Source: Terriglobia bacterium
Lineage (GTDB): Bacteria > Acidobacteriota > Terriglobia > 20CM-2-55-15
Assembly (NCBI GenBank): GCA_965218585.1
Contig: CBDCLE010000026.1
Location: forward strand, 313,833-377,832
Direction: 5' to 3'
DNA length: 64,000 nt
The notes beneath the pieces were generated by a model. That model was not told the DNA's origin and made no database searches. It saw nothing but the letters and a program-made list of their open reading frames with translations. Below, in pieces: positions 5,953 to 59,626 of this stretch. Position 1 is the first letter of the stretch. Each line of letters starts with the position of its first letter. The position numbers and the translations under genes are program-made.

Positions 5953-6056
5953 TCGTCAGAGTCCCCCTAAAATCTGCCGTTTCCGAGATCGGCTGTTGTA
6001 TAGTTTTCGAGTCGCGACGCGGAAATTTTTTGTCTTTGTTGTCAGAAGGAACAGGT

Positions 6057-7721
6057 ATGAGTTCGAATCACAGAAGGGAGCCCACTGGGATGAACCGGCG
6101 GACGTTCCTTGGGACAGGAGCAATGGCCGCGGCGGGTCTGCTTGTGGGTGGCAAGCCGGCAAACTACGCCTCAGCCCAAGACATGCGTTTGACCACAGCG
6201 GGCGGCACCGTGAGGACCCAGGCCGGACGCGTCCGGGGTCCCCTGAAGGACGGCGTCCATCAGTTCTGGGGCGTGCCCTATGGCGCGCCGACCGACGGTA
6301 TGAACCGTTTCATGCCCCCTCAAAAGCCGGCGCCCTGGTCCGGTGTTCGTGACCATTTCCAGCTTGGCTTCAGGGCACCGCAAGCACCCGGAGCCAGCGA
6401 ATCCGCCCCTGTTGTCTTCGCATTGAATCGAGGAACCCGGGACGGCGAAGATTCTCTGACGACGAACATATTCACGCCCGGTCTGGACAACCAGAACCGA
6501 CCGGTGATGGTCTGGTTGCACGGAGGCGGCTTCACTGGCGGGTCGGGAAACTTCCTCCTATACGACGGCACGAACCTGGCCAAGAAGGAAGACGTCGTCG
6601 TTGTCGTCGTCAATCACCGCCTGAACATCTTCGGATTCCTCCACCTGGCAGATATCGGCGGCGACAAGTGGGCGCAGTCGACCAACACGGGCGTGCAGGA
6701 TCTTGTCGCAACATTAGAGTGGGTCCGGGACAATATCGAGAATTTCGGCGGAAATCCCGATAACGTCACGATCATGGGTCAGTCAGGTGGCGGAGGAAAG
6801 ACCACGACGCTGATGGCCATGCCCTCAGCCCAGGGCCTGTTCCATCGCTCGATCGCCCAGAGCGGTTCGGCCTTCAGGGGCACGCTGGCCTCGGACGCGG
6901 GCGAAGGCGCCGAACGCTCTCTCGCCAAGCTCGGACTCGGAACCCACCAGTTGGATGAGCTTCAACGAATCAGCGTGGCCCAGATCCAGGATGCCTTCTA
7001 CAGTGAACCGCGGATCCGTGGCCTGGGTAATGGCCCTGTCATCGACGGTAACATCATCCCGCGCCACCAATGGGATACAACCGCACCCGCGTATTCTGCG
7101 AATGTCCCCCTGATGATGGGTTCGACCGAAACCGAGAACGGCTGGGTCGGCCCGCCACCATTCGATCTGTCGGACGAGGACATGCTCGATCGGTTCACCA
7201 CACGGCTGGCGAATGACGATCCGGCAAGGGGACAGGGGTTGCTCGAACTCTATAAACGACTCCATCCGGAAAAGAGAAACCAGATACTATGGCTGACGGC
7301 AGAATCGGACAACTCGCGGCGGTGGAACGCTCAATCCCTGGGGCGGCTGAAGTATGACCAGGGAACAGCTCCCAGCTACCTGTATTTCTTCGACTGGTAT
7401 TCGCCGGTACACGACAACCGGATGGGCGCTTACCACACGCTGGATATTCCCTTCGTGTTCTACAACGTGGACATCGCGGCGTCGATGTTGGGCTCGGCCC
7501 AGTCGCGCTACCCACTGGGACACGTGATGAGCGCGGCATGGGCCGCGTTTGCCAGAAACGGGAACCCGGACCATGCGGACATGCCACACTGGCCGGCGTT
7601 CAACCCGAATGAGTACCCGACGATGATCCTGGGCGACAACGTCCGGGTTGAAAACGACCCCAACCACGAAGAGAGGATGGCCCTGGCCGACTTGCGGGGA
7701 AGCGAACTGAGCGACGACTAA
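6057..7721 (+). CDS. Tat-exported type-B carboxylesterase (pNB esterase-like), paralog 1
   Basis: NRRTFL twin-arginine signal; WLHGGGF, GQSGGG nucleophile elbow and GAYHTLDIPFVF. Confidence 0.92.
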   Translation: MSSNHRREPTGMNRRTFLGTGAMAAAGLLVGGKPANYASAQDMRLTTAGGTVRTQAGRVRGPLKDGVHQFWGVPYGAPTDGMNRFMPPQKPAPWSGVRDHFQLGFRAPQAPGASESAPVVFALNRGTRDGEDSLTTNIFTPGLDNQNRPVMVWLHGGGFTGGSGNFLLYDGTNLAKKEDVVVVVVNHRLNIFGFLHLADIGGDKWAQSTNTGVQDLVATLEWVRDNIENFGGNPDNVTIMGQSGGGGKTTTLMAMPSAQGLFHRSIAQSGSAFRGTLASDAGEGAERSLAKLGLGTHQLDELQRISVAQIQDAFYSEPRIRGLGNGPVIDGNIIPRHQWDTTAPAYSANVPLMMGSTETENGWVGPPPFDLSDEDMLDRFTTRLANDDPARGQGLLELYKRLHPEKRNQILWLTAESDNSRRWNAQSLGRLKYDQGTAPSYLYFFDWYSPVHDNRMGAYHTLDIPFVFYNVDIAASMLGSAQSRYPLGHVMSAAWAAFARNGNPDHADMPHWPAFNPNEYPTMILGDNVRVENDPNHEERMALADLRGSELSDD

Positions 7722-7734
7722 AAATTGATTTTTT

Positions 7735-7805
7735 CTGTAGGTGCTGTCTATGACCGCACGTTTACGATTCGCAAACTTTTGTGCGGTCATAGACCGCACC
7801 TACAG
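7735..7805. repeat. GTAG-type REP doublet (REPIN-like)
   Basis: CTGTAGGTGCTGTCTATGACCGCAC...GTGCGGTCATAGACCGCACCTACAG inverted pair. Confidence 0.85.
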
Positions 7806-7819
7806 TTTTGTCAGGAGGT

Positions 7820-9487
7820 ATGAGCATGAGTTCGAAACGTGACAAGGAGCGGTCCGGGATGGATCGACGAACTTTTCTCGGAACGGGAGCCATGGCCGCG
7901 GCAGGCCTGCTTGTTGGGAGTAGGACAACTCAGGCTTCGGCCCAGGATATGCGACTGACAACTATGGGCCACACGGTGTCGACCCGGTCGGGGCGGGTTC
8001 GGGGTCTCGTCAAGGACGGTGTCCAACAGTTCTGGGGTGTGCCCTACGGAGCACCCACCGATGGAATGAACCGCTTCATGCCTCCGGAAAAGCCAGCACC
8101 GTGGTCCGGTGTCCACGACCACTTCCAGATCGGCCACAGAGCACCCCTTGCGCCCGGTGCCGGGCCGCCGGCTCCCGTCGTCCTAGCACTGGACCGAAGA
8201 GACGAGGAGGGCGAAGACTGCCTCAGCGTCAACGTGTTCACGCCGGGTACGGACAACAAAGCCCGGCCGGTGATGGTGTGGATGCACGGCGGTGGATTCT
8301 CAGGAGGAGGGGGAAACTACCTCCTCTACGACGGGACGAACCTGGCCAAGAAAGAGGACGTGGTCGTGGTGGTGGTCAACCACCGCCTGAACATCTTCGG
8401 ATTCCTGCATCTGGCGGATATCGGCGGCGACAAGTGGGCACGGTCGACCAACATGGGTGTTCAGGATCTGGTCGCAACATTGGAGTGGGTCCGGGACAAC
8501 ATCGAAAACTTCGGGGGCAATCCGGATAACGTAACGATCTTCGGTCAATCCGGAGGCGGCAGCAAGACGACGACGCTGATGGCCATGCCCTCGGCTGAAG
8601 ATCTGTTCCATCGCTCGATTGCCCAGAGCGGTTCCGCGTTCACCGGCACACTTGCATCAGACGCCAGCGAAGCGGCCAAACGGTTCATTCGAAAGCTCGG
8701 ACTGAACACCAGCCAGTTGGACCAACTTCAGAGGCTGCATTTCAGAGAGATCCAGGACGCGTTTTACAGCGATCCCCGGATTCCACGATTGGGCTCGGGC
8801 CCGGTAATCGATGGCACGATAATCCCGCGGCACCAGTGGGATCCAACCGCTCCGTCCTACTCGGCGAACGTGCCACTGATGATGGGTTCCACCGAAACCG
8901 AAGACGGCTGGAGTGGGCCGCCACCATTTGAACTGACTGACCGAGACATGCTGGATCGGTTCGTCACGCGGCTGGCCAACAGCGATGCGACCAGGGGGCA
9001 GGAGTTGCTCGATCTCTACAAGCGGCTCCATCCCGAGAAACGAAACCAGATGCTGTGGCTCACGGCAGAGTCGGACAACTCGCGGCGCTTCAGAGCACAG
9101 ACCCTGGGCAGGCTCAAGCACGAACAGGGCGCGGCCCTCAGTTACCTGTACTTCCTCGACTGGCATTCGCCGGTACACGACAACCGGATGGGCGCCTACC
9201 ATACTTTGGACATTCCGTTCGTCTTCTACAACATGGATATCGGCGCATCGATGACGGGCTCTTCTCAGTCGCGTTACGAACTTGCTCATGTGATGAGTGC
9301 CGCCTGGGCCGCGTTCGCCAGAAACGGCAACCCGAACCATGCAGACATGCCGAACTGGCCGGCGTTCAACCCCACCGACTACCCGACGATGATGTTTGGC
9401 GATGAGGTCAGACTCGTCAACGATCCGAACCGGGAAGAGCGCCTGGCGTTGGATAATTTACGTGGAAGTGAGCTGAGCGACGACTAG
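7820..9487 (+). CDS. Tat-exported type-B carboxylesterase, paralog 2
   Basis: DRRTFL signal, EDCLSVNV and GQSGGG; highly similar to paralog 1, with the same C-terminus LRGSELSDD; GGAGG RBS. Confidence 0.92.
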   Translation: MSMSSKRDKERSGMDRRTFLGTGAMAAAGLLVGSRTTQASAQDMRLTTMGHTVSTRSGRVRGLVKDGVQQFWGVPYGAPTDGMNRFMPPEKPAPWSGVHDHFQIGHRAPLAPGAGPPAPVVLALDRRDEEGEDCLSVNVFTPGTDNKARPVMVWMHGGGFSGGGGNYLLYDGTNLAKKEDVVVVVVNHRLNIFGFLHLADIGGDKWARSTNMGVQDLVATLEWVRDNIENFGGNPDNVTIFGQSGGGSKTTTLMAMPSAEDLFHRSIAQSGSAFTGTLASDASEAAKRFIRKLGLNTSQLDQLQRLHFREIQDAFYSDPRIPRLGSGPVIDGTIIPRHQWDPTAPSYSANVPLMMGSTETEDGWSGPPPFELTDRDMLDRFVTRLANSDATRGQELLDLYKRLHPEKRNQMLWLTAESDNSRRFRAQTLGRLKHEQGAALSYLYFLDWHSPVHDNRMGAYHTLDIPFVFYNMDIGASMTGSSQSRYELAHVMSAAWAAFARNGNPNHADMPNWPAFNPTDYPTMMFGDEVRLVNDPNREERLALDNLRGSELSDD

Positions 9488-28097: not shown

Positions 28098-29573
28098 CTA
28101 TCGACGCGCCCGGGCACCAGACCGTTCGTCGGCCAGGCCCGCGTATCTGGATGCTCGAAATATGCCGAGGTGTTCCCCAAAAAAACCTTTGACTCTTCGG
28201 ACAGGCAAACCCATATCCGTCATCAGGTCATCGACGTAGTGAGAGATATGCGGTCCGATAAAACCCTCTGTCCCACGGTTAGGAAGATTATCGTTAGCCC
28301 AGGTGTGTACTCGATCAATGTCCCGGTTCATCTCGTCTAGGGAAGGTAGCTGAAGAGTTCCGATAAAGTGCTCGGCTAGCCAATGAGCACCGATTTCTGC
28401 AGTCAACTGGCACGCAAAAGACGATGCGTATCCTACAAAGCCTATGTCTTGTGCCGTCGGTGGCAATATCTGCCTGAAGAGCCGCAAGTATCCGTCACCG
28501 GCGATTTCGTTCTGAAGTTCCTCGCCGAGGAACGAGACGCTCTGGTGCCAACCAGTTGCGAAGATTACGACGTCAGCCGGAAGTAGTGTACCGTCACCGA
28601 GCTCGACACCGTCTCTGGTGAATCTGCTGACTGAACCACGCACCAATCGTGCGGCGTCTTCGTTTACAGCGTCATATAGGTCGCTACCGACACCGATCTT
28701 CTCGATACCCGACGGAAGGTTTTCTTCCGGAATCAAGTCTGCCGGCATCTTCAGGTCTTTGCGCCAGCCAAGAGCTATTAGTCCTCACCAGAGACGTACA
28801 AGCGGTCTGCCCACGCTATGCATTAGGCGTCCGATCCTATTGGTGTGGTAGTAACGTAGAAAGAGCGACATCAAACGCGAGGTGACCAGCCAGTCTCCCG
28901 GTATGCGCCCGCCGGGCAAGAACCTTGGCGCCATCCATTGTGGCCGCCGATATACCAAGACCGGATTTACGCTTTGTCGGGCAGCGTAGGCCGCACAGTC
29001 AAAGGCGGATTTGCCTCCACCGACGACGACCTTGTCACCCGGCTGGTAGGCCGATTCGGTCACCTCGCTTGAATGCAGGATCCGGCCCCGAAACTGGTCT
29101 ACCCCTGCAACCGTTGGGAGCTTCGGCCGATGGAAGACCCCATTGCAGACAACCACAAAGTCGAACTCGCCTTCGTAACCCGTGTTTCTATCGTCCCCAT
29201 GCCGACACCTGATCGAAAACTTGCCAGTCTGCGGGGATGAGCGGTCGACGGCGACCACCTCTTCATTGAAACGGATTCGTTCGCGAATTTCGAAGCGATC
29301 AGCATACGACTCCAGGTAACTCCGCACCTCCTCTGCACGGGGAAACAATCCCGTGCTGTCTGGATACGGATGGTCTGAGAACTCGTAGGTCTGCTTCGAG
29401 TTGTTGGTTCGTAGGCCTGGATACGTGCGTGACGGCGCCCAGGTGCCCCCTAAATCAGTGTCTTTCTCAAAAACACGGACATCAAATCCATCCTGAGTCA
29501 GGGTTTTCGCCGTGACTAGTCCGGCGATACCAGCGCCAATCACAGCCACCGTTTTCTTGTTATCTGGTGTCAT
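28098..29573 (-). pseudogene. Flavin-containing monooxygenase (FMO-like) interrupted by an in-frame TGA at 28785-28787
   Basis: GAGIAG, FRGRILHSSE, VVGGGKSAFD and IFATGW; reads LVRLW*GLIALGWRKDLKMPADL in a single frame. Confidence 0.8.
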
Positions 29574-38943: not shown

Positions 38944-39711
38944 TCATGGAGTCTTGAACTTGTCGGCCAGCTTCTCGCTTTCACTGGTCAGAATGCCTGT
39001 ATCGGTACCCACTGCTACAAACCGGCAGCCCAGGCCAAGCCAATGCCTGGCGTTCTCTTCGACGCCGGTCAGAATGCCGGGCGCCTTCCCAGTCCGGCTT
39101 ATGCGGCCGATGGCCTCGTCGATGATCGGCGTGACCTCAGGGTGGGCGGTTTCGCCACGGTAACCGTAGGAACCGTGCAGATCCGACGGTCCGATAAACA
39201 CTCCATCAACCCCCTCAACCGCGGCAATCTTTTCAATGTTTTTGACGCCGGTTTTCGTCTCGACCTGCACGAGCAGGCAAATCTCTTCGTGGGCGCGTTT
39301 GTGATAGTCCTTCACGCGACCAAAGCGGTCAGCACGCAACATGCGCCCGATACCACGCACGCCCTCGGGCGGATACCGCGTATTGGCGACCGCGCTTTGC
39401 ACTTCCTCCGCGTTCTGGACATATGGAACCAGGAGGGTCTGGGCACCGACGTCAAGGAAACGCTTGATCATTACCATGTCGTTCCACGGAACACGTACGA
39501 CCGGGTGTGTCGGATAGGAGGCCACAGCCTGCAACTGAGACAGGACCATAGTCATGTCATTGGGGGAGTGCTCGGTGTCCAGCAATAGCCAGTCAAACCC
39601 CGACCCCGCCAGCAACTCGGCTGAGTAATGACTGGCAAGATTCAACCAGAGGCCGATCTGCGGCTTCCCTTCCCTGAGGGCTCTCTTGAACGAGTTGACG
39701 GGCATTTCCAC
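38944..39711 (-). CDS. HpcH/HpaI family class II aldolase
   Basis: GFDWLLLDTEHSP, RYPPEGVRG, VQVET and GVFIGPSDL motifs. Confidence 0.93.
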   Translation of the reverse strand: MEMPVNSFKRALREGKPQIGLWLNLASHYSAELLAGSGFDWLLLDTEHSPNDMTMVLSQLQAVASYPTHPVVRVPWNDMVMIKRFLDVGAQTLLVPYVQNAEEVQSAVANTRYPPEGVRGIGRMLRADRFGRVKDYHKRAHEEICLLVQVETKTGVKNIEKIAAVEGVDGVFIGPSDLHGSYGYRGETAHPEVTPIIDEAIGRISRTGKAPGILTGVEENARHWLGLGCRFVAVGTDTGILTSESEKLADKFKTP

Positions 39712-39855
39712 GACGCGTCTCCTAATTGAGATATGTACGGACCCTCCGAACGGAGAGACCCTCGATTCTTACACGAACTGGGCTGTTACGGGTCGGGGTT
39801 GTGAGGAAGAAAGTCTTTTCGCTGCCAGTATTGAACCGATCCGGATACGGTGAGG

Positions 39856-40639
39856 CTAGTCGATTGGTTTGACGCTTTTCCGCAAGATCTCGACCATTTC
39901 TGCACCACCGGCAAAGATCGTCTCAGGGGTCAATCCCCGATCCATGAGTTCGCCCAGATCAACCGGTCGGCCGGAAGCATACACCAGAACAGCCCCGGTC
40001 TTTTCCAGAAGAGCGGAGGGTAGTGCCAGGTCCCACAAGTTTACCGTCGGACCGAATACGAAGCCCTTCACGGCTCCCTTGGCCAACAGGCACAACTGAT
40101 AGATGGGCGCACCCAGGGAGTAGACTCGTCCGGGAAAGTCGATCTTGTATTCCGAATGGTGATTCGTGGGCGCCAGAATTATTGTGTTGGGCTTGAGTTC
40201 GACAGAGAGATCCGGCCGAAGAACTTCATCATTGCAATAGGCCGGCCCGTCCTCATCGCACCAGAACAGTTCGTTCGTGACGGGGTTGATCGCAGCGCCC
40301 CCAATCGGCCTGGAACCCTGCATGATGCAGACGGCCGGCGTCCAGAGTGGGAGCCGAACGGCGAAGGCACGCGTGCCATCGAGTGCATCCACGACCCAGG
40401 AGCGATCCTCGCCGGAGTCAGGTTCCCCTGTTTTCCTTTGTCTCCTCTCCGATATAGCCATAGTCAGGAGCAAGGGCCTTGAGCGAAAGCTTGAGAAATT
40501 CCTCGATGGCCGCGTCGGCTTCGGTGACGATGCTCAGATCGGTCTTGAGCGACTTCGAGACCTTGCCGTAGTACAGCATGGCCAATTGCCCCGCTTCAGT
40601 AACGACCTCTTTGAGGTCTTTGATGTCAACCGTTGTCAT
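39856..40639 (-). CDS. Inositol monophosphatase family phosphatase (frameshift near 40426)
   Basis: IVTEAD, IGEE-[fs]-WVVDALDGT and LWDLA; the fragments join if one base is removed from the C4 run. Confidence 0.85.
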
Positions 40640-40644
40640 ATTGA

Positions 40645-40743
40645 TGTAGGTGTGGTCTGTAATCGCACAGATTGAAGAGGTGCGGTTAAGGAAGCTGTGA
40701 ATAAATAGCAGTCAGCGACTGTAGGGGCGCTCTGTGAGCGCCC
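40645..40743. repeat. Two degenerate GTAG-type REP units
   Basis: TGTAGGTGTGGTCTGTAATCGCAC at 40645 and CTGTAGGGGCGCTCTGTGAGCGCCC at 40719. Confidence 0.65.
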
Positions 40744-40765
40744 GCTTATCAAAGAGACGTGCGCG

Positions 40766-42455
40766 TTAGACGCGCTTGACGATATCGACCTTCCCGGCCT
40801 CACCGTCAACCCGGATGATGTCGCCGTTCTTGATCGAACTCGTCGCGTTCCATGTGCCGACCACTGCGGGTATGCCGTATTCTCTGGCGGCGATTGCCGC
40901 GTGGGTCAACATGCCGCCGGTGTCGGTAACGACGCCTCCGATCTTCAGGAACAGCGGCGTCCATGCAGTTCCGGTATAGGGGCAAACAAGGATTTCGCCA
41001 GACTGGACGGTCGGAAAATCCTCGAAGTTCAGGATCACACGGGCCGGCCCTTCGACATTGCCGGGAGCGCCAGGGAAGCCCTCGAGCTTATCAGAAACTT
41101 CGGTTTCGCCCTTCGGGTGGAGCACTTCGTCGATGATACCGAAGACCTTGATCGCGATCGGGTCGGTCATGGTTTCAGGCACGTTGCCGACGGTCAGCGG
41201 GGCGTCCAACTCACCTGCGGTTTCCCAACTCTTTCTTCTCTCTTCAACCAGGGGTTGCACCAAAACCTGGTGGTGGTAGGTGCCAATCTTCTCGTCCCGT
41301 GCCAGGTCGGTAAAGATTTCCGACAAGCTCGCTATAGGTCAGGAAGAACACTTCGTCGGCTTTCTTGAGCAGACCCAGTTTCTCGAGACGCCGTCCGCAC
41401 ACCATCAGCGAATCGTGGAGCGCTGCGGTGCAGCCCTGATCGATGTAGAATCCGTGGTCTTCCTGATAAGCGTAGATCTTCTGTGCCGCCCTGAGAAACC
41501 TTTGAAACGCGGCCATCTCGTCATCGCCAAGCTCTTTCTCGCAGGCCTCGATTGCTTTCTGGCGCTGGTTTGCGACGTCGCTACGCGCCTTGAAGAAATC
41601 CCAGCCGTCGTCCATGCGTTTGAAATAACCCTTGATGGTTTCCAGGACCGGCTGCGGATCTTCTTTCCAGGTCGGGAACAGGACGTCGAGATGAGCTGCG
41701 CTGATCCTGTGGCCGTAGACGTCCAGAAACTTGTCGAACCGTCCGAGCCAGCTCTTGGCATCGGCCGTTCCCTCGAGCGTCTCGAGCAGAGACTGGGCCG
41801 GTGTGTTGGCGAAGGTATCTTCGAGGCCAGCTTCTTTGGCGGCCTGTGCCAGGTTCCACAACTCCTCGTCGGTCTTCGACGGCATGCTGTCAAAGCCCTT
41901 GAGCATCGTGACGAAGTCCTTCTCCTGAAGTCCCATCTCTTTGCAGTACTCTTCGAACTGCAGATAGAGCCCATCGGCCGGGTACATCAGAATGAAGTGA
42001 ATTTCCCAGGCGCGGCGGTTCATCTCCTCGCTCTTGCGAAGGTGGTCGAGAAGCTCGGGCGTTGAAAGCTGGTCGGCCTTCTCGATATCGAGTGCAGCGA
42101 TGTTAGCGACGATCTCGTCGATGTGTTTCCGATAGTAGTCGTCCCAGTTGTCTTTAAGTTCTTCGATCAGCGCACCAAACGATTGAGCGCGCCGACCCAC
42201 TTCTTCGGGATCCTCGATCAGCGTAAATCCCAGATACACTCGCCCTTGATGAATCTTTACGTAGGCGCCCTTCGAGGGCGGAAGGCTGGTCTGATCCGCA
42301 GCAACGTGGTAGCCCCAGGCATGATGTTTCTGGATGGTGGTCATCCCCATTGGGGAAATGGGGTACGGCTGGTGCAGGTCGTCACGGAACCAGAAGATGC
42401 CGTTGTCCAGATCGGGACGCAAGGTCTGGAGGGCCGATATGCTTCGGTCTATCAT
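40766..42455 (-). CDS. PEP-utilising phosphohistidine protein with large substrate-binding domain (phenylphosphate synthase subunit A / rifampicin phosphotransferase C-terminal-like); frameshift near 41320
   Basis: WFRDDLHQPYP, FLDVYGHR, PTWKEDP, DEVFFLTYSE-[fs], VEGPARV and TDTGGMLTHAAIAAREYGIPAVVG. Confidence 0.88.
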
Positions 42456-42530
42456 AGTGGACTCCGTTTGTATGGCTTCCCTTCGCCCTCGAACGGGCGA
42501 AGGGAAGCGATCTGTCCAGTCGGATCTTAC

Positions 42531-43604
42531 TTAGTCAGCGGGAACTGCTGCGTCTGCCAAAGGACTCAATCCGTAGCTCTCCAGCGGCGGGAGGTTGAAC
42601 AGCTGCTCTGCGTTCTTGCCCAACAGCAAGTCGGTTGTTTCCTGGTCCAGACTGAGCTCTGCGGCCAGATCCTTGATGCTCTGGATCGCACCCTCGGGAT
42701 CTCCAACGCGGTGAGCGTAATCGGTCCCGATCATCATGTGCTCAGGTCCTACCCACTCCATGCAGCACTTCATCGCAGGCAGGTAGAACGAGGTGGTGTC
42801 CGGATAAACGCGCTTTCGATACGTTTCCTCGGGATGCTCATTGAGCTCGAGACCCCATTCCTTGGCATAACCCTTCCATGAGTCCTTGAGTCTGCGGACC
42901 AGGTAAGGGGCGACACCGCCGAGATGGGCGTGAATCAGCTTGAAATCCGGGCAGCGCTCGAACGTGCCGTTGAAGATCAGGCTGATGACGCACAGCGTCG
43001 AGTCCAGCGTATAACCGTAAAGCTGATACGGAATCCGGCTCTTGTTCATGGCTTCCGATGTCATCGGAACGGTGGGATGCAGGAGGATGGGGAGGTTGTA
43101 TTCGCCGGCCATCTGGAATATGGGATCGAACTTTTCCTGGAACATCACTTCTCCATTGCAGTTGGAGAACATCTGAATCCCGTTGATGTCCAGTTCCTTG
43201 TGACAGCGCTCGAGTTCTTCACAGGCCGCATCGACGTCCTGATACGGAAGACACGCATAAGCGTAGATCCGTCCCGGATATTTCTTGACGGTCTCAGAAT
43301 AGGCGTCATTGATCTTCTTTGCCCAATAGACACCGTCATCCCGTTCGAGCAGTTCAGGCGCCGGAATGGTCTTGCTCATGATCTGAGTATCCATTCCAAA
43401 CTTGTCCAGATCCCGGATTCGCTCATCGATGTCGTAATGGCCGGCACGGTCGATGTGGGCCACGATGACGTCTCCGGCGTAGCAGAGATAGGAATGTTCC
43501 CCGGTCTGCTCGGCACGTATCCGCTTTCCTTTCCGGGTTGTTAGATATTCGAGGTAGTCCTTCGGATAAAAGTGATTGTGAACGTCTACAGTTCTTTGTG
43601 ACAT
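42531..43604 (-). CDS. Amidohydrolase_2 family protein (ACMSD/LigW-like non-oxidative decarboxylase or hydratase)
   Basis: DVHNHF, ILLHP, LIHAHLGG, YPDT and IGTDY motifs. Confidence 0.88.
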   Translation of the reverse strand: MSQRTVDVHNHFYPKDYLEYLTTRKGKRIRAEQTGEHSYLCYAGDVIVAHIDRAGHYDIDERIRDLDKFGMDTQIMSKTIPAPELLERDDGVYWAKKINDAYSETVKKYPGRIYAYACLPYQDVDAACEELERCHKELDINGIQMFSNCNGEVMFQEKFDPIFQMAGEYNLPILLHPTVPMTSEAMNKSRIPYQLYGYTLDSTLCVISLIFNGTFERCPDFKLIHAHLGGVAPYLVRRLKDSWKGYAKEWGLELNEHPEETYRKRVYPDTTSFYLPAMKCCMEWVGPEHMMIGTDYAHRVGDPEGAIQSIKDLAAELSLDQETTDLLLGKNAEQLFNLPPLESYGLSPLADAAVPAD

Positions 43605-43635
43605 ATGGTTCGTCCTTCTTGGTTAGTCGTTTATG

Positions 43636-44616
43636 TTAGTTAGTCTGAGCGGCTTTCTCCAGGCCGCGGATCCTGCGAGTCTGCAGGATGTACATTTTCC
43701 CGTCCTGGAAAGCCCATTCCACGTCGGCGTTGAATCCGAAATGATCTTCGATCCGCTTGCCGGCGTTACCGAGTTCGCCGAGCTGGGCCCCGGACAGGGT
43801 CGGTTCTTTAGAGCGGTTCGCTGGAACAGGCCGTTCCGTGCGCCCTGAACCGCTGTCGTCCATTGTTACCATCACGGTCTTCGGGGCGATCTGCTTCTGT
43901 TTCGTTGACAGAGTATCTTTGTCGAGAACGAAGAAATCGTTCATCGATTTTCCGGAAACGACCGATTCCCCTAACCCCCAGTTGGATTCGATCACGATTT
44001 CGCTGGTGCTCCCAGTGATCGGGTGCGCCGTGAACAGCACCCCGGCGACCTCGGAGTGGATCATCAACTGAACGACCGGCGCGATGACTCCCTTTTCATG
44101 GGGAACCTCCTTCGAATGACGGGCGTAGGCGGCGCGCGTCGTCCAGAGCGAGGCCCAGCATTCGAGAATCTTGCCCAGTACGTCGTCCGCACCCTGGATG
44201 TAGTGATAGGTATCCATCATGCCGGGAAACGAAGAGACTTCCGAATCCCTTACGGCTACGGACGAGCGCACGGCGACGTGCTTGTTGTCCCCTGCCACGA
44301 GCTTGCCGAAAGAGTCCCGGATGTCTTCCTCCAGGTCAGTGGGGATCTTGGCAGAAACGATGAGCGTTCGAATCGTTTCTGTCTTCTTCTCCACGCCGGC
44401 ATAGTCTTCGAAGTCGAGGTCGGCCGCGATCTGGGAGATCTGCTCCCCGAGCGAGTTCGACTCGACGACATAAGGCAGGGCGTCCCCGGTGACGCAGAAC
44501 CCCCCGGGAACAGGCAAGCCAAGTCGGGTCAGTTCGCCAAGCCCGGCTGCCTTACCGCCACACTGCTGAACCTCGGCCTGGCTTACTTCCTCAAGCGCTT
44601 TGACGTACTGGGTCAT
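43636..44616 (-). CDS. Stand-alone PEP-synthase ATP-grasp domain (phenylphosphate synthase subunit B-like)
   Basis: GGKAAGLGEL..VPGGFCV, VAVRSS, SFPGMMDTY, WGLGESVVSG and DVEWA..ILQTR. Confidence 0.9.
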   Translation of the reverse strand: MTQYVKALEEVSQAEVQQCGGKAAGLGELTRLGLPVPGGFCVTGDALPYVVESNSLGEQISQIAADLDFEDYAGVEKKTETIRTLIVSAKIPTDLEEDIRDSFGKLVAGDNKHVAVRSSVAVRDSEVSSFPGMMDTYHYIQGADDVLGKILECWASLWTTRAAYARHSKEVPHEKGVIAPVVQLMIHSEVAGVLFTAHPITGSTSEIVIESNWGLGESVVSGKSMNDFFVLDKDTLSTKQKQIAPKTVMVTMDDSGSGRTERPVPANRSKEPTLSGAQLGELGNAGKRIEDHFGFNADVEWAFQDGKMYILQTRRIRGLEKAAQTN

Positions 44617-45003
44617 TCGATCATTTCCACTCTGCCATAGGGGTCTCGACCCCATTTTGGAAGGTTTTCGGCACTGGCTGTCGTGGTTTTCCAGAGATTC
44701 ACGGAAATCTCCAGCCCCAAGATAGTAACGAATCCTTGGATGGAAGGCTTGCAGAATTTGCACCATGATGAACAGGATTATGACTTTTGATCCCCTATCC
44801 GGCCGCCTGGGGTTCAGATGGCCCACCCACAAATATACAAACAATTGAAACTAAATGGCTTGCCTGTCTGAGGGATCGGTTGGGTGGGTCGACGCCAACT
44901 CCCTTACCTGAAATTTGAGTCCCAAATTGTCGGCAGTGAAGTATAGGGACAGACTGAAACTGGTTTGCGTCACTCGATACTTAGCGTCATTATAGGGATA
45001 CCG

Positions 45004-45927
45004 ATGAGCGCTTTGCCCAATTCGGTCTTTGCTGCCGACGAGACTCATGGTCGGGTCTTGAGGCCGGGCAACCGTCTGCTGGTGGACAGCCAGGACGCAG
45101 GCTGGCGTTCTTTGCATGCCGCTATCTTCCAGGAGGTGCCGTTCGAGGCGAAGGAAACACCCCTTGGTCATCCGTCGTTCATTTACCATCGCCACCATCC
45201 GGCCCGGGTGACCCGCAAGATCGAAGGCGGGCCCCGTAACCAGGAGCTGATCGGCCCCCGCCGAATCTGTCTGACGCCAGCAGACGCGACCGCGCACTGG
45301 TCGCACAATGGCGAACCCGAGATCCTTCAGGTCTATCTGCGTGGATCGATGTACCAGGCTGCGGTGGCCGAACTTTACGGTTGCGACGTTTCCGAGGCAG
45401 AGATCGTACCCCGGTTCGCGATGGTGGATCCTCTACTCGAGCAACTGGCCCTGGCGATCACGGCGGCATTGTGGGACGGGACAGTGGAGGACGGACTCTA
45501 CGTCGATACTCTCGCGCAAACGATAGCCGTGCATCTGGCACGGGTACATTCGTCACAGGGGCGGCAGCCCCGCACAGCCTCGGCGCCGAGCATGCAGGGG
45601 GCACGCATGAGGCGCGTGAAGGAATACATCGAGGAACATCTCGACGGAGATCTCCGTCTGGAGGCAATGGCTGCAGAAGTCGGGGTCAATCCCGTCTATT
45701 TTGCACGCTCCTTCAGAGAGGCGGTTGGAGAATCGCCGCACCGCTACGTGCTGCAGCGCCGCGTAAAACGCGCAAAGGAACTCCTGCGTAACACGGAGAT
45801 GTCGGTTGTGGAGGTGGCGCTGGCAGCAGGCTTTTCATCGCAGAGCCATCTTTCCCATTGGTTCCAGCGCTATGTGGGTGTCTCCCCTGCCGCTTACCGG
45901 GGACACCGTGCCACGTCGGGAAGCTGA
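45004..45927 (+). CDS. AraC-family transcriptional regulator
   Basis: C-terminal double HTH: YFARSFREAVGESPHRY and AGFSSQSHLSHWF. Confidence 0.93.
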   Translation: MSALPNSVFAADETHGRVLRPGNRLLVDSQDAGWRSLHAAIFQEVPFEAKETPLGHPSFIYHRHHPARVTRKIEGGPRNQELIGPRRICLTPADATAHWSHNGEPEILQVYLRGSMYQAAVAELYGCDVSEAEIVPRFAMVDPLLEQLALAITAALWDGTVEDGLYVDTLAQTIAVHLARVHSSQGRQPRTASAPSMQGARMRRVKEYIEEHLDGDLRLEAMAAEVGVNPVYFARSFREAVGESPHRYVLQRRVKRAKELLRNTEMSVVEVALAAGFSSQSHLSHWFQRYVGVSPAAYRGHRATSGS

Positions 45928-54568: not shown

Positions 54569-54799
54569 AACCGGTCCTCCGGAGGGGCTGTGGATTTCGT
54601 CGGCGCGTGCCTTGAACCGACTCCGTACTTTTCGACAGATTGGAGCGGCAAGATACAACGTATACGCCTCGGTTGCAATCCAAATAGCTGCCTGTTGATT
54701 TGCACCCAAAACTGATCCACTTAAAGCGGGTATTTGCATCGAAATTTGACCCACGTGTATACCCATTCCTGCCGATTAACAGAGCAGGAGGGCAAAGGA

Positions 54800-56327
54800 G
54801 TGATAGACGTGGCGATATTGAGTGTGATCAGACGCTGGCATGTACGAGAGGGCGTATCGATTCGAGAGATCAGCAGGCGAACGAAGCTGTCGCGCAATAC
54901 GATCCGGAAGCACTTGGCGAGCGGCGCTCTGGAGGCGGTCTATCCGAAGCGCAGGAGCCGGAGCAAAGTGGACGGCTACGCCGAGTTGCTGGCGTCGTGG
55001 CTGAAGCGGGAATCGGCCCGGGGTCGCAAGGAGCGGCGTAATCTCAAGCAGCTGCACGGCGAGTTGATGAAGCTTGGCTACACGGGGTCCTATGACCGTG
55101 TGGCGGCGTTTGCGCGGGTATGGCGGCGCCAACAGCAAGAAGCCTCGAAGGTGAGCCGGGACACGTTCGTGCCGCTGGTGTTTGCGCCCGGCGAAGCGTT
55201 CCAGTTCGACTGGAGCGAGGACTGGGTGGTCATCGGCGGTGAACGCACGAAGCTGATGGTGGCGCAGTTCAAACTCTGCCACAGCCGGGCGTTCATGCTG
55301 CGGGCTTATCCGCTACAGTCCCACGAGATGCTGTTCGACGCCCACAACTATTGTCTGGCGGCGTTGGGCGGTGTGCCCCGGCGGGGCATCTACGACAACA
55401 TGAAGACAGCGGTGGACCGAGTGGGCCGAGGGAAGGCCCGGGTGGTCAACGCCCGGTTCAAGGCGATGGTGAGCCATTTCCTGTTCGAAGCGGAGTTCTG
55501 CACGCCTGGCGCCGGATGGGAGAAAGGCCAGATCGAGAAGAACGTCCGGGACGCGCGGCCCCGTCTGTTCCATGACGCGCCTGGGTTTGCTGGCTTCCGT
55601 GACGTGAACGTGTGGCTTGAGCGGCGATGCCGGGGTCTCTGGGACGAGATCCATCACCCGGAGCAGCCCCAGCGTACAGTCGCCGAGGTCTGGGCCGATG
55701 AGCACGCGCATCTGATGCGCATGCCGACGCCGTTCGATGGCTTTGTCGAGCACACCAAGCGTGTTTCTCCGACCTGCCTTATCGCCTTCGCGCGTAATCG
55801 CTACAGCGTGCCGGCCGCGTTTGCCAACCGGCCGGTCAGTGTCCGCGTCTACGCCGAACGCATCGTGATTGCCGCCGAAGGCCAGGTCATCGCTGAGCAT
55901 CCGCGGGTGATCGCGCGCGGGCGCGACTGCCGGTCAGGGCGAACCGTCTACGACTGGCGCCACTACCTGAGCGTCCTCCAACGAAAACCGGGCGCGTTGA
56001 GGAACGGCGCTCCCTTCGCCGAGCTTCCCCCAACCTTTCAAGCGCCTCCAGGCGGCGCGGCTCAAGCGACCTGGCGGGGACCGGGAGATGGTGGAGATCC
56101 TGGCGCTGGTGCTGCACCACGATGAGCCGGCGGTGCTGCGTGCCGCCGAGATCGCACTCGCAGCCGGGGCCGCCTCCAAGCAACATGTGCTCAATATCTT
56201 GAGCCGGTTACTGGAAGCCTCGCCGCCCAGCCTCATCGATATACCCGATGCGTTGACACTGCTCAATGAACCGAAGGCCGATGTTCATCGCTACGACCGC
56301 TTGAGAGGAGATGGCCATGTCATCTGA
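54800..56327 (+). CDS. istA: IS21 transposase IstA (frameshift near 56030-56038)
   Basis: N-terminal [16 protein letters not shown] and EKGQIEK; C-terminus [16 protein letters not shown] in another frame. Confidence 0.92.
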
Positions 56328-57090
56328 ATCTCTGGTCAGCGCGCTGAGGTCGCTCAAACTCCATGGCATGGCGCAAGCGGTCGATGAACTCGCGCGGCAA
56401 GGCGCTCCGGCTTTCTCAAACATAGAGCCCATGCTCCACACCTTAACCGAGGCCGAGGTCGCCGAGCGCGAGGTCCGCTCCATCAACTACCAGATGAGGA
56501 CCGCCCGCTTCCCAGCCTATCGCGACCTCTCCAACTTCGACTTCAATGAAAGCCCCGTTGATGAGGCACTGCTCAGCTCACTGTATCGATGTGACTTCGT
56601 CGCCGACGCTCACAACATCGTGATGATCGGCGGACCGGGCACCGGCAAGACCCATCTCGCCACGGCCATCGGCGTGCAGGCCATCACTCACCATCGCCTC
56701 AGAGTCCGGTTCTTCTCCACTATCGAACTCGTCAACACGCTGGAACAGGAGAAAGCCAAGGGTAAGACTGGGCAGATCGCCAACCGGCTCCTGCAAGTCG
56801 ATTTGGTCATTCTCGATGAACTCGGCTATCTGCCGTTCTCGCAGGCCGGCGGCGCCTTGCTGTTCCACCTGCTGAGCAAACTCTACGAGCGCACCCGCAG
56901 GGTCCTCACCACCAACCTTGCCTTCGGTGAATGGCCCCGGGTCTTCAACGACACGAAGATGACCGCCGCGCTGCTCGACCGCCTCACCCACCATTGCCAC
57001 ATCGTCGAAACCGGCAATGACAGTTACCGTTTTAGAAACAGTTCCACACACACAAAGGAGACTAAACCCCGGAAAAACCCCAACCCATGA
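56317..57090 (+). CDS. istB: IS21 ATPase IstB
   Basis: [15 protein letters not shown] and [15 protein letters not shown]. Confidence 0.95.
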
Positions 57091-57377: not shown

Positions 57378-58115
57378 ATGACGATGGAAGTGAAATGGTG
57401 TGGATTCGACTACGGGCAATGCATCATGGAGCCCGGAGGTCTGCGCAATCCCCGCATGTTCGGAGACATCTATAAGGCGTTGGGCAAGCCGGAGCTGATT
57501 CCTCAGAAAATCAGCCAGTACAGAAAGCTCAAGGAAAAATACGGTTCCTACGGCCGGATCAAAGAGGGCCACCGGGACGAGATCCACAGCTATGTTCTGG
57601 AAGACGATCCCGAAGCGATCGAGCTTTTCAGCAACAAGGAACAAGAGCTTCTGGACATGGGCGATGGCCTGGAAGATGCCCTGGACTATCTCCAGGACCA
57701 AGGTATCGAGCTTCAGGTGGTCTCAGAGATGAAGAAGACCCTGGGAGCTGTGGGAACCGACATCGTTTCGAAATTCTTAAAGAGAAGAGATCTTATCAAA
57801 TACTTCAATGAGCTGGTCACGCCACAGGGAAAGATGAACCTGGTGGACGACACCGTCGACCCCAGATACAAGGGACACACCAAGAAAGACGGCACGCTTT
57901 ACGATGTCCTCGCCGAGGACTTGAAGGAACGTGGCATCGAGCCCCACGAAGCGGTCATGGTCGGAGACAAGCCGGAGACAGACATAAATCCTGCTCACGA
58001 CAGGGGTTTCAAGACGATCAAATACACAGGTTTTATTGACCTGGGTGAGTCGAAGGCGGACCTTGTCATCGATAGTTTCGAGGAACTGAAGAGCATTCTA
58101 AAGAAAAAGGACTAA
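57378..58115 (+). CDS. HAD-superfamily hydrolase
   Basis: Motif I GFDYGQC, motif II VVSE, motif III K and motif IV MVGDKPETD. Confidence 0.82.
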   Translation: MTMEVKWCGFDYGQCIMEPGGLRNPRMFGDIYKALGKPELIPQKISQYRKLKEKYGSYGRIKEGHRDEIHSYVLEDDPEAIELFSNKEQELLDMGDGLEDALDYLQDQGIELQVVSEMKKTLGAVGTDIVSKFLKRRDLIKYFNELVTPQGKMNLVDDTVDPRYKGHTKKDGTLYDVLAEDLKERGIEPHEAVMVGDKPETDINPAHDRGFKTIKYTGFIDLGESKADLVIDSFEELKSILKKKD

Positions 58116-58120
58116 CACCT

Positions 58121-58750
58121 GTGCCTAGATCCAAACCCCAGAAGGTGGTCGTCGAGTTTGACGATGGCTCGAAAACTGAAACGAGCTTTGAAGCCCTGCC
58201 ATCCCAGTTACAGTCCGAACTCTTGAGACAACCCTTTGCAAGTCAACCGAGTGCGAACCCGGATCAGGAGAAATATGTTTTGCTCGAGTGGGATGATGGA
58301 TGGAGGGAGGTTATCCAGGTGGATGCGGCCTGCTCTGCCCTCAACCGCTACTACGTGATCAGCCGCCCGGAAGACGTAGGCCGCCTTTCCCTGACCAAGG
58401 AAGAGGGCTATCCCGAACTCATTGAGATCGGTAGAAAGCCCCTGGACCTAAAGAAAGTCACTTTTCTCGACACCTTCGATCTCTCCCTCGAGCGATCGGA
58501 CAGGGAGGGCAAGAAGACCGACCATTTCTTTAAGCTGTCCAAAGGGGCTGATGCTTTTGGCGAGGAATTAAGCGCGTTTAGGAAAGCCGTTCATGAGGAA
58601 GGTTACGACCTTCAGGAACTCGGGACTTCCGGTCCCGACCAGCAGAGAGAAGCCTATGAAAAAATCCGGCGCAGGATGGGCATTCAGGCAACCCATCGTC
58701 AGCAGGACGTATTCGACTTCATCGCTTATCTCGGCAAAGCCGCACAGTAA
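58121..58750 (+). CDS. Hypothetical cytoplasmic protein, likely co-transcribed with the HAD gene
   Basis: 209-aa ORF starting 5 nt after the HAD stop; no recognisable motif. Confidence 0.7.
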   Translation: MPRSKPQKVVVEFDDGSKTETSFEALPSQLQSELLRQPFASQPSANPDQEKYVLLEWDDGWREVIQVDAACSALNRYYVISRPEDVGRLSLTKEEGYPELIEIGRKPLDLKKVTFLDTFDLSLERSDREGKKTDHFFKLSKGADAFGEELSAFRKAVHEEGYDLQELGTSGPDQQREAYEKIRRRMGIQATHRQQDVFDFIAYLGKAAQ

Positions 58751-58834: not shown

Positions 58835-59626
58835 TTACGTTCGAACGAGTTCTCCGACCAGTTTGTCGAGTTCCTGGTGCAGAGAAGGAGTTGCACCGAC
58901 AAGGAAGCTCCGCGTGTTCAGGTTCCACGGCCCGTTGCTTTCCAGGTCCGTAACAACGGCACCCGCCTCGGAAGCAATAAAGCAACCTGCCGCCGTATGG
59001 ACAGAGCCGTGGGAGACGACGGCCGGTGTTCTGACGTCCACGATGCCCGAAATCCGACCCGACGCGAGGAAAGCCCAGCTGACGGCCGAAGGAAAGACCA
59101 ACACATACCACCGGCGCACGGAAAACAGCCGGTCAATTACGCCCACTGCGGGGGCAGACCCCGGCCGGGGTTCGACCCAGATCGTCTTGCTGTCTTCACT
59201 TGCCGCAATCGGACGGTCCCGGGTCCCGGTGCGCATCCGTGCGCCCGAACCCTTTTCTGCAAACAGGATTTCATCTGTGCGTCCAACGCCGACGGCGGCG
59301 AGGGTGATTTCTCCGCCCTCGACAAGCGCAATGTTGGTGCAGTAGAGGGGAAGGTTCGAAGCAAACATGCGGGTTCCGCAGATCGGATCCACGAGCCAGT
59401 ATGGATCTCCGTTTCGAGGCGTGCCCCCACGCTCCTCGCCTATGACAGGATAATCTGGAAACGACCCGAGCAGATCCGATCGGATGGCGTCTTCACAGAC
59501 CACATCAGTAGCAGTAACAAGATCGATGCCGCCTTTCGACTCTGTTTCGTCGGCACCCTTTCTTGAGTCCGCGATCTTGAGCGCGTCAGCGACCGCGCCG
59601 ATCGCAGCTTCGGTTTCCGGCCTCAT
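58835..59626 (-). CDS. Inositol monophosphatase-fold protein with altered active site
   Basis: DLVTATD, IGEE, WLVDPICGT (canonical DPIDGT) and VHTAAG (canonical WDxAAG). Confidence 0.85.
   Translation of the reverse strand: MRPETEAAIGAVADALKIADSRKGADETESKGGIDLVTATDVVCEDAIRSDLLGSFPDYPVIGEERGGTPRNGDPYWLVDPICGTRMFASNLPLYCTNIALVEGGEITLAAVGVGRTDEILFAEKGSGARMRTGTRDRPIAASEDSKTIWVEPRPGSAPAVGVIDRLFSVRRWYVLVFPSAVSWAFLASGRISGIVDVRTPAVVSHGSVHTAAGCFIASEAGAVVTDLESNGPWNLNTRSFLVGATPSLHQELDKLVGELVRT

Follow-up and report, generated by a model that had tools for sequence, protein, structure and literature searches.

Four kinase-initiated pathways for the breakdown of phenolic compounds are known, Pps/Ppc, Cre, Hpe/Acv and 3-hydroxypyridine, each of which couples a similar split dikinase to a different second enzyme. 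HpeHI, PpsAB and CreHI are two-component dikinases that act on phenolic hydroxyl groups (PMC12167813, PMC9618137), and the mechanism described there for HpeHI involves an ATP-grasp domain, a histidine swivel domain and a substrate domain (PMC12167813). Here, we describe a cassette in a stretch of 64,000 nucleotides, the window, from the genome assembly of a Terriglobia bacterium (GCA_965218585.1, contig CBDCLE010000026.1, positions 313,833 to 377,832), in which the genes for a split dikinase enclose the gene for an ACMSD-type metal-dependent protein of the amidohydrolase superfamily (AH2) and are followed by a phosphatase gene. The locus encodes a conserved module of three functions, a split dikinase, an ACMSD-type metalloenzyme and a phosphatase function, which are inherited together, usually along with coenzyme A (CoA) ligases of the aromatic-acid type. 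As for the order of the steps, their direction and the class of substrate, we infer O-phosphorylation, (de)carboxylation and dephosphorylation of a phenolic substrate. Our tentative reading, to which we assign a probability of roughly 0.4, is that the cassette performs a carboxylation driven by the phosphate tag.

The cassette consists of four co-oriented genes at positions 39856-44616 of the window, separated by intergenic gaps of 31, 75 and 126 bp:

43636..44616, minus strand: stand-alone ATP-grasp (PPDK_N) subunit of a two-component dikinase (Pfam PPDK_N, 289.5 bits)
42531..43604, minus strand: AH2, ACMSD-type metal-dependent amidohydrolase-superfamily protein of 357 amino acids, candidate (de)carboxylase (Amidohydro_2, 107.4 bits)
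40766..42455, minus strand: PpsA-like subunit with a substrate-binding central domain and a phospho-His swivel domain, in two frames (PEP-utilizers, 86.4 bits)
39856..40639, minus strand: IMPase-family phosphatase, in two frames (Inositol_P, 66.2 bits, C-terminal piece only)

The Pfam matches agree with all four domain calls of the initial annotation, which also had the genes in the right place and in the same orientation; that two of them are frameshifted in the window had escaped it. Pfam reported no phosphoenolpyruvate (PEP)/pyruvate-binding TIM barrel on the cassette proteins of the window and the scanned relatives, as had been claimed for the window. The open reading frame (ORF) of the ATP-grasp gene extends to a start codon at 44844, but the start at 44616, which yields a protein of 326 amino acids, is preferred because the relatives are 322-327 amino acids long.

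The cassette resembles the Pps/Ppc system for anaerobic phenol metabolism in Thauera and Azoarcus, compared here through the annotated cluster of Azoarcus sp. KH32C, in that a PpsA-like protein and a separate ATP-grasp dikinase subunit are combined with a carboxylating step, here a proposed one, and a phosphatase-family protein. It differs in the order of the genes, which is PpsA before PpsB in the Pps/Ppc system and ATP-grasp, AH2, kinase in the cassette. Furthermore, the cassette lacks the CBS-domain protein PpsC, the UbiD-family subunit and UbiX, while the Azoarcus cluster contains UbiD/UbiX genes, and the candidate carboxylase is an ACMSD-type metalloenzyme. The PpsA-like subunit is only 27.7% identical to PpsA of the Azoarcus ppsABC-ppcBDAG-ubiD-ubiX cluster (annotated plasmid records), and an IMPase or an atypical HAD protein is found here, as opposed to a KdsC-like delta subunit with a D-x-D motif.

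The closest published logic is that of the hydroxyphenylethanone (Hpe/Acv) pathway, which the initial annotation had left out. The proteins HpeHI (kinase), HpeCBA (carboxylase), HpeD (phosphatase), HpeE (CoA synthetase) and HpeF (hydrolase) follow the same scheme of a split dikinase, a carboxylase specific for the tagged compound, a phosphatase and a CoA ligase (PMC9618137, PMC12167813). Similar to the Hpe/Acv genes, the phosphatase and the CoA ligase are encoded with the kinase, the former as an IMPase or HAD protein in 51 and the latter in 40 of 79 related loci. However, the Hpe/Acv carboxylase is a biotin- and ATP-dependent enzyme of three components, present also in an Hpe-type cluster of Rhizobium, and no such enzyme is found among the conserved named neighbours of the cassette. 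The kinase of this Rhizobium plasmid cluster, which includes a biotin carboxylase, an HAD hydrolase and a CoA ligase, is 28.5% identical to the PpsA-like subunit. HpeD is an NagD-like HAD protein, and the cassette is followed by old yellow enzyme (OYE) reductase, SDR and acyl-CoA dehydrogenase genes, in which it also differs.

In the CreHI-CreJEF-CreD pathway for 4-cresol in Corynebacterium glutamicum, the tagged intermediate is oxidised by a P450 system, whereas no P450 was found among the conserved neighbours of the cassette. The likeness lies in the split dikinase that tags the phenol and in the final phosphohydrolase that removes the tag, as outlined in PMC9618137. A split dikinase pair, consisting of PEP-utilizing and PPDK-like genes, is also essential beside a different second enzyme in the 3-hydroxypyridine dehydrogenase (HpdA) system (bioRxiv 10.1101/2020.01.08.898148), but the partner is a molybdenum hydroxylase, and no amidohydrolase-type decarboxylase or phosphatase is described. 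Rifampin phosphotransferase (RPH) uses the same three-domain dikinase mechanism (PMC12167813), but it is a single polypeptide that confers antibiotic resistance, while the cassette has a separate ATP-grasp protein and a catabolic context. The decarboxylases of the PF04909 family, such as ACMSD, LigW and the enzymes for gamma-resorcylate, 2,3-dihydroxybenzoate (2,3-DHB) and isoorotate, share with AH2 the TIM-barrel fold, the metal ligands, the catalytic His and the two substrate Arg residues. We know of no PF04909 decarboxylase that acts on a phosphorylated substrate or is encoded between the subunits of a kinase. Judging from the gene content, the cassette works like the Pps/Ppc and Hpe/Acv systems and belongs to neither, because the UbiD-type and biotin-dependent carboxylases that define them are absent. 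No published description of a kinase, an amidohydrolase and a phosphatase in this combination was found in the open-access full text of PMC and bioRxiv, in line with its earlier designation as undescribed; a report in a subscription journal is possible.

To survey the distribution of the cassette, we searched with an alignment of 24 full-length relatives of the kinase subunit (A1), which matched 91 species-level genomes, and kept the best 80 loci. All ORFs in these loci were clustered and the clusters were named by Pfam; neighbours were counted in 79 loci, those with a called kinase ORF, and L022 was dropped since the gene is cut by the end of the contig. The loci are from Rhodospirillales and Xanthobacteraceae (with Roseiarcus fermentans among the two), Acidobacteriota, Chloroflexota, Actinomycetota (Gaiellales and Thermoleophilia), Desulfobacterota/Syntrophia (among them Desulfocarbo indianensis, Syntrophus, Syntrophorhabdales and Desulfatiglandales) and Peptococcaceae (among them Pelotomaculum terephthalicicum JT). 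AH2 is present in 53 and the ATP-grasp gene in 45 of the 79 loci, and every one of the 45 loci with an ATP-grasp gene contains AH2. The order ATP-grasp, AH2, (HAD, X222), kinase is found in 39 of these 45 loci, where X222 is a protein encoded beside the HAD gene. Of the loci flanked on each side by 6 kb or more (n=45), AH2 is present in 35, the ATP-grasp gene in 29, an IMPase or HAD gene in 32, and all three functions in 28. AH2 is missing from ten well-flanked loci, eight of which are of the Desulfobacterota type. In this type, the kinase gene is preceded by an inserted transporter operon, and in the longer loci (L035, L044 and L076) the amidohydrolase gene is located at least 7 kb away.

The reverse search, with an AH2 alignment (A4) against metagenome contigs, yielded 197 relatives, of which the best 80 loci were kept. 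Upstream DNA of 1.2 kb or more was available for 58 loci, 49 of which have the ATP-grasp gene. Among the loci that also had at least 4 kb downstream (n=36), 33 contained a kinase part and 25 an IMPase or HAD gene. The arrangement is far from what is expected by chance, and it recurs across phyla and in both search directions. The initial annotation had named a lack of conservation of the triplet elsewhere as one result that would speak against its interpretation; the triplet instead proved to be strongly conserved.

The ATP-grasp (PPDK_N) domain is encoded on an ORF separate from the kinase subunit in the window and in eight of the ten relatives scanned; in the other two, L032 and L035, the ATP-grasp gene lay outside the scanned stretch. 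In NCBIfam and the Protein Data Bank (PDB), it best matches the N-terminal domain of PEP synthase, RPH and PigC. The T-H motif of the swivel domain and its surroundings are invariant in all 24 aligned relatives and present in the 186-aa ORF of the window. The PpsA-like protein matches the PRK08296 models of NCBIfam over its full length (NF006153, 326.6 bits, below the cutoff of 578), and its closest solved structure is RPH (5hv1/5fbs, E 1e-30), with a match that covers part of the substrate-binding domain and the swivel domain. This homology, together with the identities to Azoarcus PpsA and the Hpe/Acv-type kinase given above, bears out the kinship to PpsA/PpsB and CreH/CreI suggested earlier. 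A Thermomicrobium gene beside a xanthine-dehydrogenase-type enzyme encodes a protein with 32.4% identity to the PpsA-like subunit. Since the identities to annotated proteins outside the family are 27.7-32.4%, while those to the window kinase within the family are 46-77% across phyla, the kinase subunit appears to represent a distinct orthologous group inside the two-component dikinases. The ATP-grasp and PpsA-like proteins would form a two-component small-molecule dikinase, which would transfer the beta-phosphate of ATP via the swivel His to a hydroxyl group of a small aromatic compound (ATP + X-OH + H2O -> X-O-P + AMP + Pi).

The score of AH2 against Amidohydro_2 is well above the gathering score of 26.4, and the family has no NCBIfam model. 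The best sequence matches in the PDB are ACMSD (1.7e-29) and LigW, followed by weaker matches to the hydratase LigJ and the hydrolase LigY (1e-6 to 5e-6). The residues H9, H11, R53, H176, H227, R238 and D295 align with H6, H8, R47, H174, H224, R235 and D291 of human ACMSD and comprise the metal ligands (HxH...H...D), the catalytic His and the two substrate-binding Arg residues, so that all aligned catalytic residues of ACMSD are kept. R53 is present in at least 90% of 30 aligned sequences and the other six residues are invariant. Consistently, the AlphaFold2 (AF2) model (pLDDT 88) superimposes on human ACMSD (4ofc) with TM scores of 0.82/0.87 and a Foldseek E-value of 1e-24 at about 24% sequence identity, and the next structural matches are IDCase, LigW, 2,3-DHB decarboxylase and gamma-resorcylate decarboxylase. 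All of these top-ranking structures are of non-oxidative decarboxylases. The relatives across phyla form a group of their own, with 37-83% identity to the window protein. By the model and the aligned residues, AH2 belongs to the ACMSD/LigW/IDCase group of decarboxylases, with the corresponding predicted activity, which agrees with its initial placement among the decarboxylases. A complex prediction for AH2 and the IMPase, both from L001 and with alignments, gave a score of 0.00 and is uninformative either way.

The phosphatase function is encoded by two types of genes. The intact ortholog of the IMPase in L001 matches Inositol_P with 100.7 bits, and E64, D83, D86 and D202, which we take to be the metal-binding Glu and Asp residues, are invariant in an alignment of 20 family members; the best NCBIfam matches, HisN and CysQ, are far below their cutoffs. 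IMPase and HAD genes are each present in 26 of the 79 loci, but they occur together in only one of them. This pattern fits one required function that is filled in two ways, because the two types are almost mutually exclusive per locus. The window shares the IMPase type with most Alphaproteobacteria, Chloroflexi and Actinomycetota; elsewhere its place is taken by the HAD protein with X222. None of the five genomes with an IMPase-type cassette that were searched gave a match to the cassette-type HAD (E<=1e-10); these are metagenome-assembled genomes of unstated completeness. X222 is encoded in 24 of the 79 loci and adjoins the HAD gene in 24 of the 26 HAD loci.

The window is an exception in that it has both the cassette IMPase and, 13 kb from the cassette, a pair of genes for an HAD protein and a member of the X222 family, X209, located directly after an IS21-type element. 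The pair, at 57378-58750, had been overlooked, as had the CoA ligase, OYE and transporter genes that are linked to the cassette in other genomes. The features in this part of the window are:

54734..57090, plus strand: IS21-type element with an istA-like gene (Mu-transposase C-terminal domain) and istB (Mu-transpos_C_2 and IstB_IS21 matches)
57378..58115, plus strand: HAD-superfamily protein of the cassette type (Pfam HAD_2; 70-81% identity to the eight best cassette HADs)
58121..58750, plus strand: X209 (X222 family), HAD partner of 209 amino acids with no recognised family or fold (31-66% identity to cassette X222 proteins)

The HAD partner is well folded according to the AF2 model of X209 (pLDDT 91.8) and has no match of note among solved structures. 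For X209/X222, no Pfam match passes at E<=1 (two are at chance level, far below cutoff) and there is no NCBIfam match; a profile search against PDB sequences gave chance-level matches only, and the best score in the ESM Atlas was 0.75. The X209 model has no Foldseek match at E<=1e-3, and its best VIA-align Z is 4.3. Close to this pair, at 58835-59626 on the minus strand, is a second, intact IMPase-family gene of 263 amino acids, which, with about 28-34% identity to the cassette IMPases, appears not to be of the cassette type.

Several further gene families accompany the cassette. CoA ligase genes are followed in frequency by genes for the Peripla_BP_6 binding protein of an ABC transporter (35/79 loci), OYE reductase (26/79), SDR (20/79), acyl-CoA dehydrogenase (15/79), a hexapeptide-repeat protein (12/79), crotonase (11/79) and X369 (11/79). 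The CoA ligase encoded next to the ATP-grasp gene in the Chloroflexota-type loci passes the benzoate-CoA ligase family TIGR02262 (537.5 bits, cutoff 375), while the closest match of the OYE-linked CoA ligase is 2,3-dihydroxybenzoate-AMP ligase (370-397 bits, below cutoff). The cassette SDR is nearest to BadH, and genes for CoA ligase, SDR and acyl-CoA dehydrogenase repeatedly occur together. No UbiD/UbiX, biotin carboxylase, BCCP or carboxyltransferase was found among the named neighbour families common to at least six of the 80 loci, a count that leaves out the unnamed families X369, X122, X203, X108 and X273. X369, X122, X203 and X108 have no Pfam match at E<=0.1. X369, which also has no NCBIfam match, is 360-370 amino acids long, and its gene immediately precedes the ATP-grasp gene or follows the kinase gene in loci from Syntrophia, Peptococcaceae and Actinomycetota (including L066, L067, L071, L050 and L052). 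The solute-binding protein of L001 has no sequence relative in the PDB at 1e-5, and for this reason no ligand was inferred. The hexapeptide-repeat protein was considered as a gamma-carbonic anhydrase, an identity that would have lent support to CO2 chemistry, but its best match is PaaY (192 bits, cutoff 319), followed by gamma-carbonic anhydrase (150 bits, cutoff 250), and the candidate was left unused.

In the mechanism that we propose, the ACMSD-type enzyme would interconvert the phosphate-tagged compound and its carboxylated form, and the phosphatase, either the IMPase or the HAD protein with X222, would remove the tag. AH2 would be reversible and cofactor-free and would equilibrate only the tagged pair. 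If the phosphatase prefers the carboxylated member of the pair, the tagging paid by ATP would pull an otherwise unfavourable carboxylation, and the free product could not revert, so that the cassette would act as a phosphate-tag ratchet. In a variant of this scheme, the coupling would be like that of phenylphosphate carboxylase, with the phosphatase generating the phenolate in place. The resulting hydroxy-aromatic acid would be activated by the benzoate- or dihydroxybenzoate-type CoA ligase and passed on to OYE, SDR, acyl-CoA dehydrogenase and crotonase. A scheme like that of levulinate/ACAD10, in which a hydroxyacyl-CoA is phosphorylated before an elimination, was dropped as the principal interpretation, since it has no role for the amidohydrolase.

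Four arguments favour the direction of carboxylation. There is no other carboxylase among the conserved named neighbours, and the step is followed by a CoA ligase that activates acids. The cassette is retained in energy-limited syntrophs even though the step costs ATP to AMP, and strict anaerobes and syntrophs would not be expected to spend this without a need for driving force. Finally, the selectivities needed for the carboxylase and the phosphatase have a precedent in the Hpe pathway, where phosphorylation of the substrate is a prerequisite for the carboxylase and the phosphatase has a preference for the product that carries the carboxyl group (PMC9618137).

Several observations weigh against tag-driven carboxylation. 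One is related to the substrate. The known amidohydrolase-type aromatic decarboxylases bind a free ortho-hydroxyl group, so a tagged monophenol would be a misfit unless the enzyme relied on a second hydroxyl or some other group. Another concerns the HAD protein, in which motif I is D-x-G and the second Asp is absent (alignment A3), unlike the delta subunit of phenylphosphate carboxylase in Azoarcus, which has a D-x-D motif I. Because D-x-G replaces D-x-D, the HAD protein may not be an ordinary phosphatase and its chemistry may be different.

A third observation is the presence of transporters, with ABC transporters in 35 of the 79 loci and an MFS transporter beside one Syntrophus cassette, for which the best match is PcaK (384.7 bits, below cutoff). 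They suggest the uptake of an acid, in agreement with decarboxylation, or a substrate that is itself an acid, at least as well as carboxylation. If the cassette worked in the opposite direction, an imported hydroxy-aromatic di-acid or hydroxy-acid would be tagged, decarboxylated and untagged, the remaining acid would be passed on to the CoA ligase, and the phosphate would serve as a recognition handle or a protecting group, as in the Cre pathway, rather than as an energy input. All characterised close structural relatives of AH2 are physiologically decarboxylases, and both carboxylate-binding Arg residues of ACMSD, the role of which is named in the titles of the PDB entries 4ifk and 4ign, are retained. 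The Cre and Hpe pathways also show that a phosphate tag can serve recognition (PMC9618137), and transporter types for aromatic acids and solute binding flank the cassette. However, decarboxylation needs no ATP, the cost of which would be high for the syntrophs among the carriers, and the downstream CoA ligase would then demand a second carboxyl group on the substrate. For these reasons we regard this direction as rather unlikely.

A fourth observation is that AH2 is followed by OYE and CoA ligase genes without a kinase part in six metagenome loci (L155, L157, L160, L163, L169 and L144), for which the flanks are at most 5 kb on each side and less at the ends of contigs. These loci represent either a variant of the gene order that extends beyond the flanks or a kinase-free use of the enzyme. 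They would also suit a role for AH2 other than as a (de)carboxylase, for example as a hydratase or a hydrolase of C-C bonds or rings, like LigJ and LigY of the same Pfam family, or an action on a non-aromatic enol phosphate, which the kinase would make from a ketone in a logic similar to that of PEP carboxylase, with the phosphatases in a side role. LigJ and LigY are among the weaker PDB matches of AH2, and the SDR with BadH as its best match, the acyl-CoA dehydrogenase and the crotonase that accompany the cassette are in keeping with such a role. Nevertheless, the best matches in sequence and fold are decarboxylases, ahead of LigJ and LigY by at least 20 orders of magnitude in E-value, the full set of ACMSD residues is retained, and the near-constant presence of a phosphatase would be left unexplained, which makes a function of this kind unlikely.

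Lastly, the cassette is scattered in the window's own genome, with a CoA ligase fragment on another contig, and it is frameshifted as assembled. The PpsA-like gene is represented by two overlapping ORFs, 42455..41244 (403 aa) and 41326..40766 (186 aa), while 118 of the 120 best PpsA-like relatives listed are uninterrupted, with a length of 553-590 aa and both PF27448 and PF00391 on one protein; the remaining two listed are the window's own 403-aa product and a fragment of 478 aa. The break is a +1 frameshift at the GG of the coding strand at 41320-41321, across which the family consensus is continuous. Similarly, a +1 frameshift, located within the GGGG at 40425-40428, splits the IMPase into the frames 40639..about 40420 and 40473..39856, and both pieces match single genes of 260-266 aa in the relatives.

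Contigs of three public sequencing runs were compared with the window over positions 39800-42500. The Logan contigs of two of these (X1 and X2) have one base fewer at 40425 and at 41320, exactly the two sites of the breaks, and also differ from the window by four single bases over 2.7 kb. X1 and X2 are from one sample with a word depth of only 2-3.4, which may be the source of the window and is not an independent confirmation of the organism. The third run (X3), from a different study, covers 11 of 30 bins and neither of the frameshift sites. Because the X1 and X2 contigs lack the extra base at both sites, an intact form of the PpsA-like and IMPase genes exists. The simplest explanation is that the frameshifts in the window are probably errors in the consensus of homopolymers, the alternative being a strain variant or decay. 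A third gene in the window is interrupted, one for an FMO-like flavin monooxygenase at 28098-29573 on the minus strand, which is split into ORFs of 262 and 216 aa; this is consistent with errors in the assembly consensus.

The genome of the window has a size of 4.55 Mb, distributed over 26 contigs, and a completeness of 95.5%; the window is located at the end of its contig. The kinase gene is present in a single copy. The CoA ligase fragment, at positions 3-920 of contig C7 (L081, L091), comprises the C-terminal 305 residues at the start of the contig and is 64% identical to the cassette-linked gene of the benzoate-CoA-ligase type in L006; the assembly lacks the remainder of this gene and the genes upstream of it. 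Neither the window nor the initial 14 kb of the contig with the CoA ligase encodes an OYE, SDR or binding protein of the cassette types. An ortholog of the kinase (E<=1e-100) is present in only one of the 60 related genomes searched, and in none of the four of the same genus, so the cassette is an accessory trait with a patchy distribution.

These features could be taken to mean that the cassette in this genome is a decaying remnant or a set of mere neighbours and that the frameshifts are real. The two frameshifts themselves, the nearby IS21 element with the HAD-X209 pair 13 kb away, the fragmentary CoA ligase at a contig end and the rarity of the kinase ortholog among related genomes are in favour of decay. 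Yet both genes occur without the extra base in two runs of one sample, both breaks are in homopolymer runs, the usual site of consensus errors, the split of a third gene points to the quality of the assembly, and the cassette is strongly conserved elsewhere. Decay is in our view highly improbable.

Other genes in the window are not associated with the cassette. The two local neighbours included in the initial annotation are:

38944..39711, minus strand: HpcH/HpaI-type aldolase, downstream of the cassette (HpcH_HpaI, 174.6 bits; TIGR02311 HpaI, 355.3 bits, cutoff 368.8)
44965..45927, plus strand: AraC-family regulator, divergent from the cassette (HTH_18, 87.8 bits)

Both are located as described there, but they are unlinked to the cassette and placed outside the system, because none of the 80 related loci has a match to either gene. 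Likewise, the RlmL-like and Amidohydro_1 neighbours in the window have matches in none of the 80 loci. A flavoprotein of 191 aa, encoded at 2956-3531 on the plus strand and 37 kb from the cassette, belongs to PF02441, a family that holds flavin prenyltransferases of the UbiX/Pad1 type, and it is unlinked to the cassette in the related loci examined. At 6030-9487 on the plus strand, there are two tandem paralogs of the carboxylesterase family (563 and 559 aa), near genes for a dienelactone hydrolase, Abhydrolase_10 and proteins with a metallo-beta-lactamase fold.

The cassette is a concrete gene candidate for anaerobic carboxylations that have not been assigned to genes, such as that of hydroquinone. 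A review from 2013 referred to the hydroquinone carboxylase as uncharacterised and placed a gentisate CoA ligase next in the pathway (PMC3727088), and growth on hydroquinone and hydroxybenzoate has been reported for Pelotomaculum terephthalicicum, here a carrier of the cassette (PMC10989887 for the growth). If the cassette encoded this never-identified enzyme, which would convert hydroquinone to gentisate, the dihydroxybenzoate-type CoA ligase would be a gentisate-CoA ligase and OYE would act on gentisyl-CoA, but we consider the assignment distinctly unlikely.

To the second enzymes of the kinase-initiated pathways, the cassette adds a fifth partner, a cofactor-free, metal-dependent enzyme of the decarboxylase type with a phosphatase of its own, and it is widespread, with matches in 91 species-level genomes and 197 metagenome stretches. 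It may be a new way of adding CO2 to aromatic compounds. If this is true, it would be a third, biotin- and prenylated flavin mononucleotide (prFMN)-independent, type of phenol carboxylation paid for by ATP, in which a product-selective phosphatase makes the step irreversible. It would show that ATP can drive a simple, reversible carboxylase without biotin or prenylated flavin, which would matter for the anaerobic degradation of aromatic compounds and for the biocatalytic fixation of CO2 on phenols, a process that today needs molar bicarbonate.

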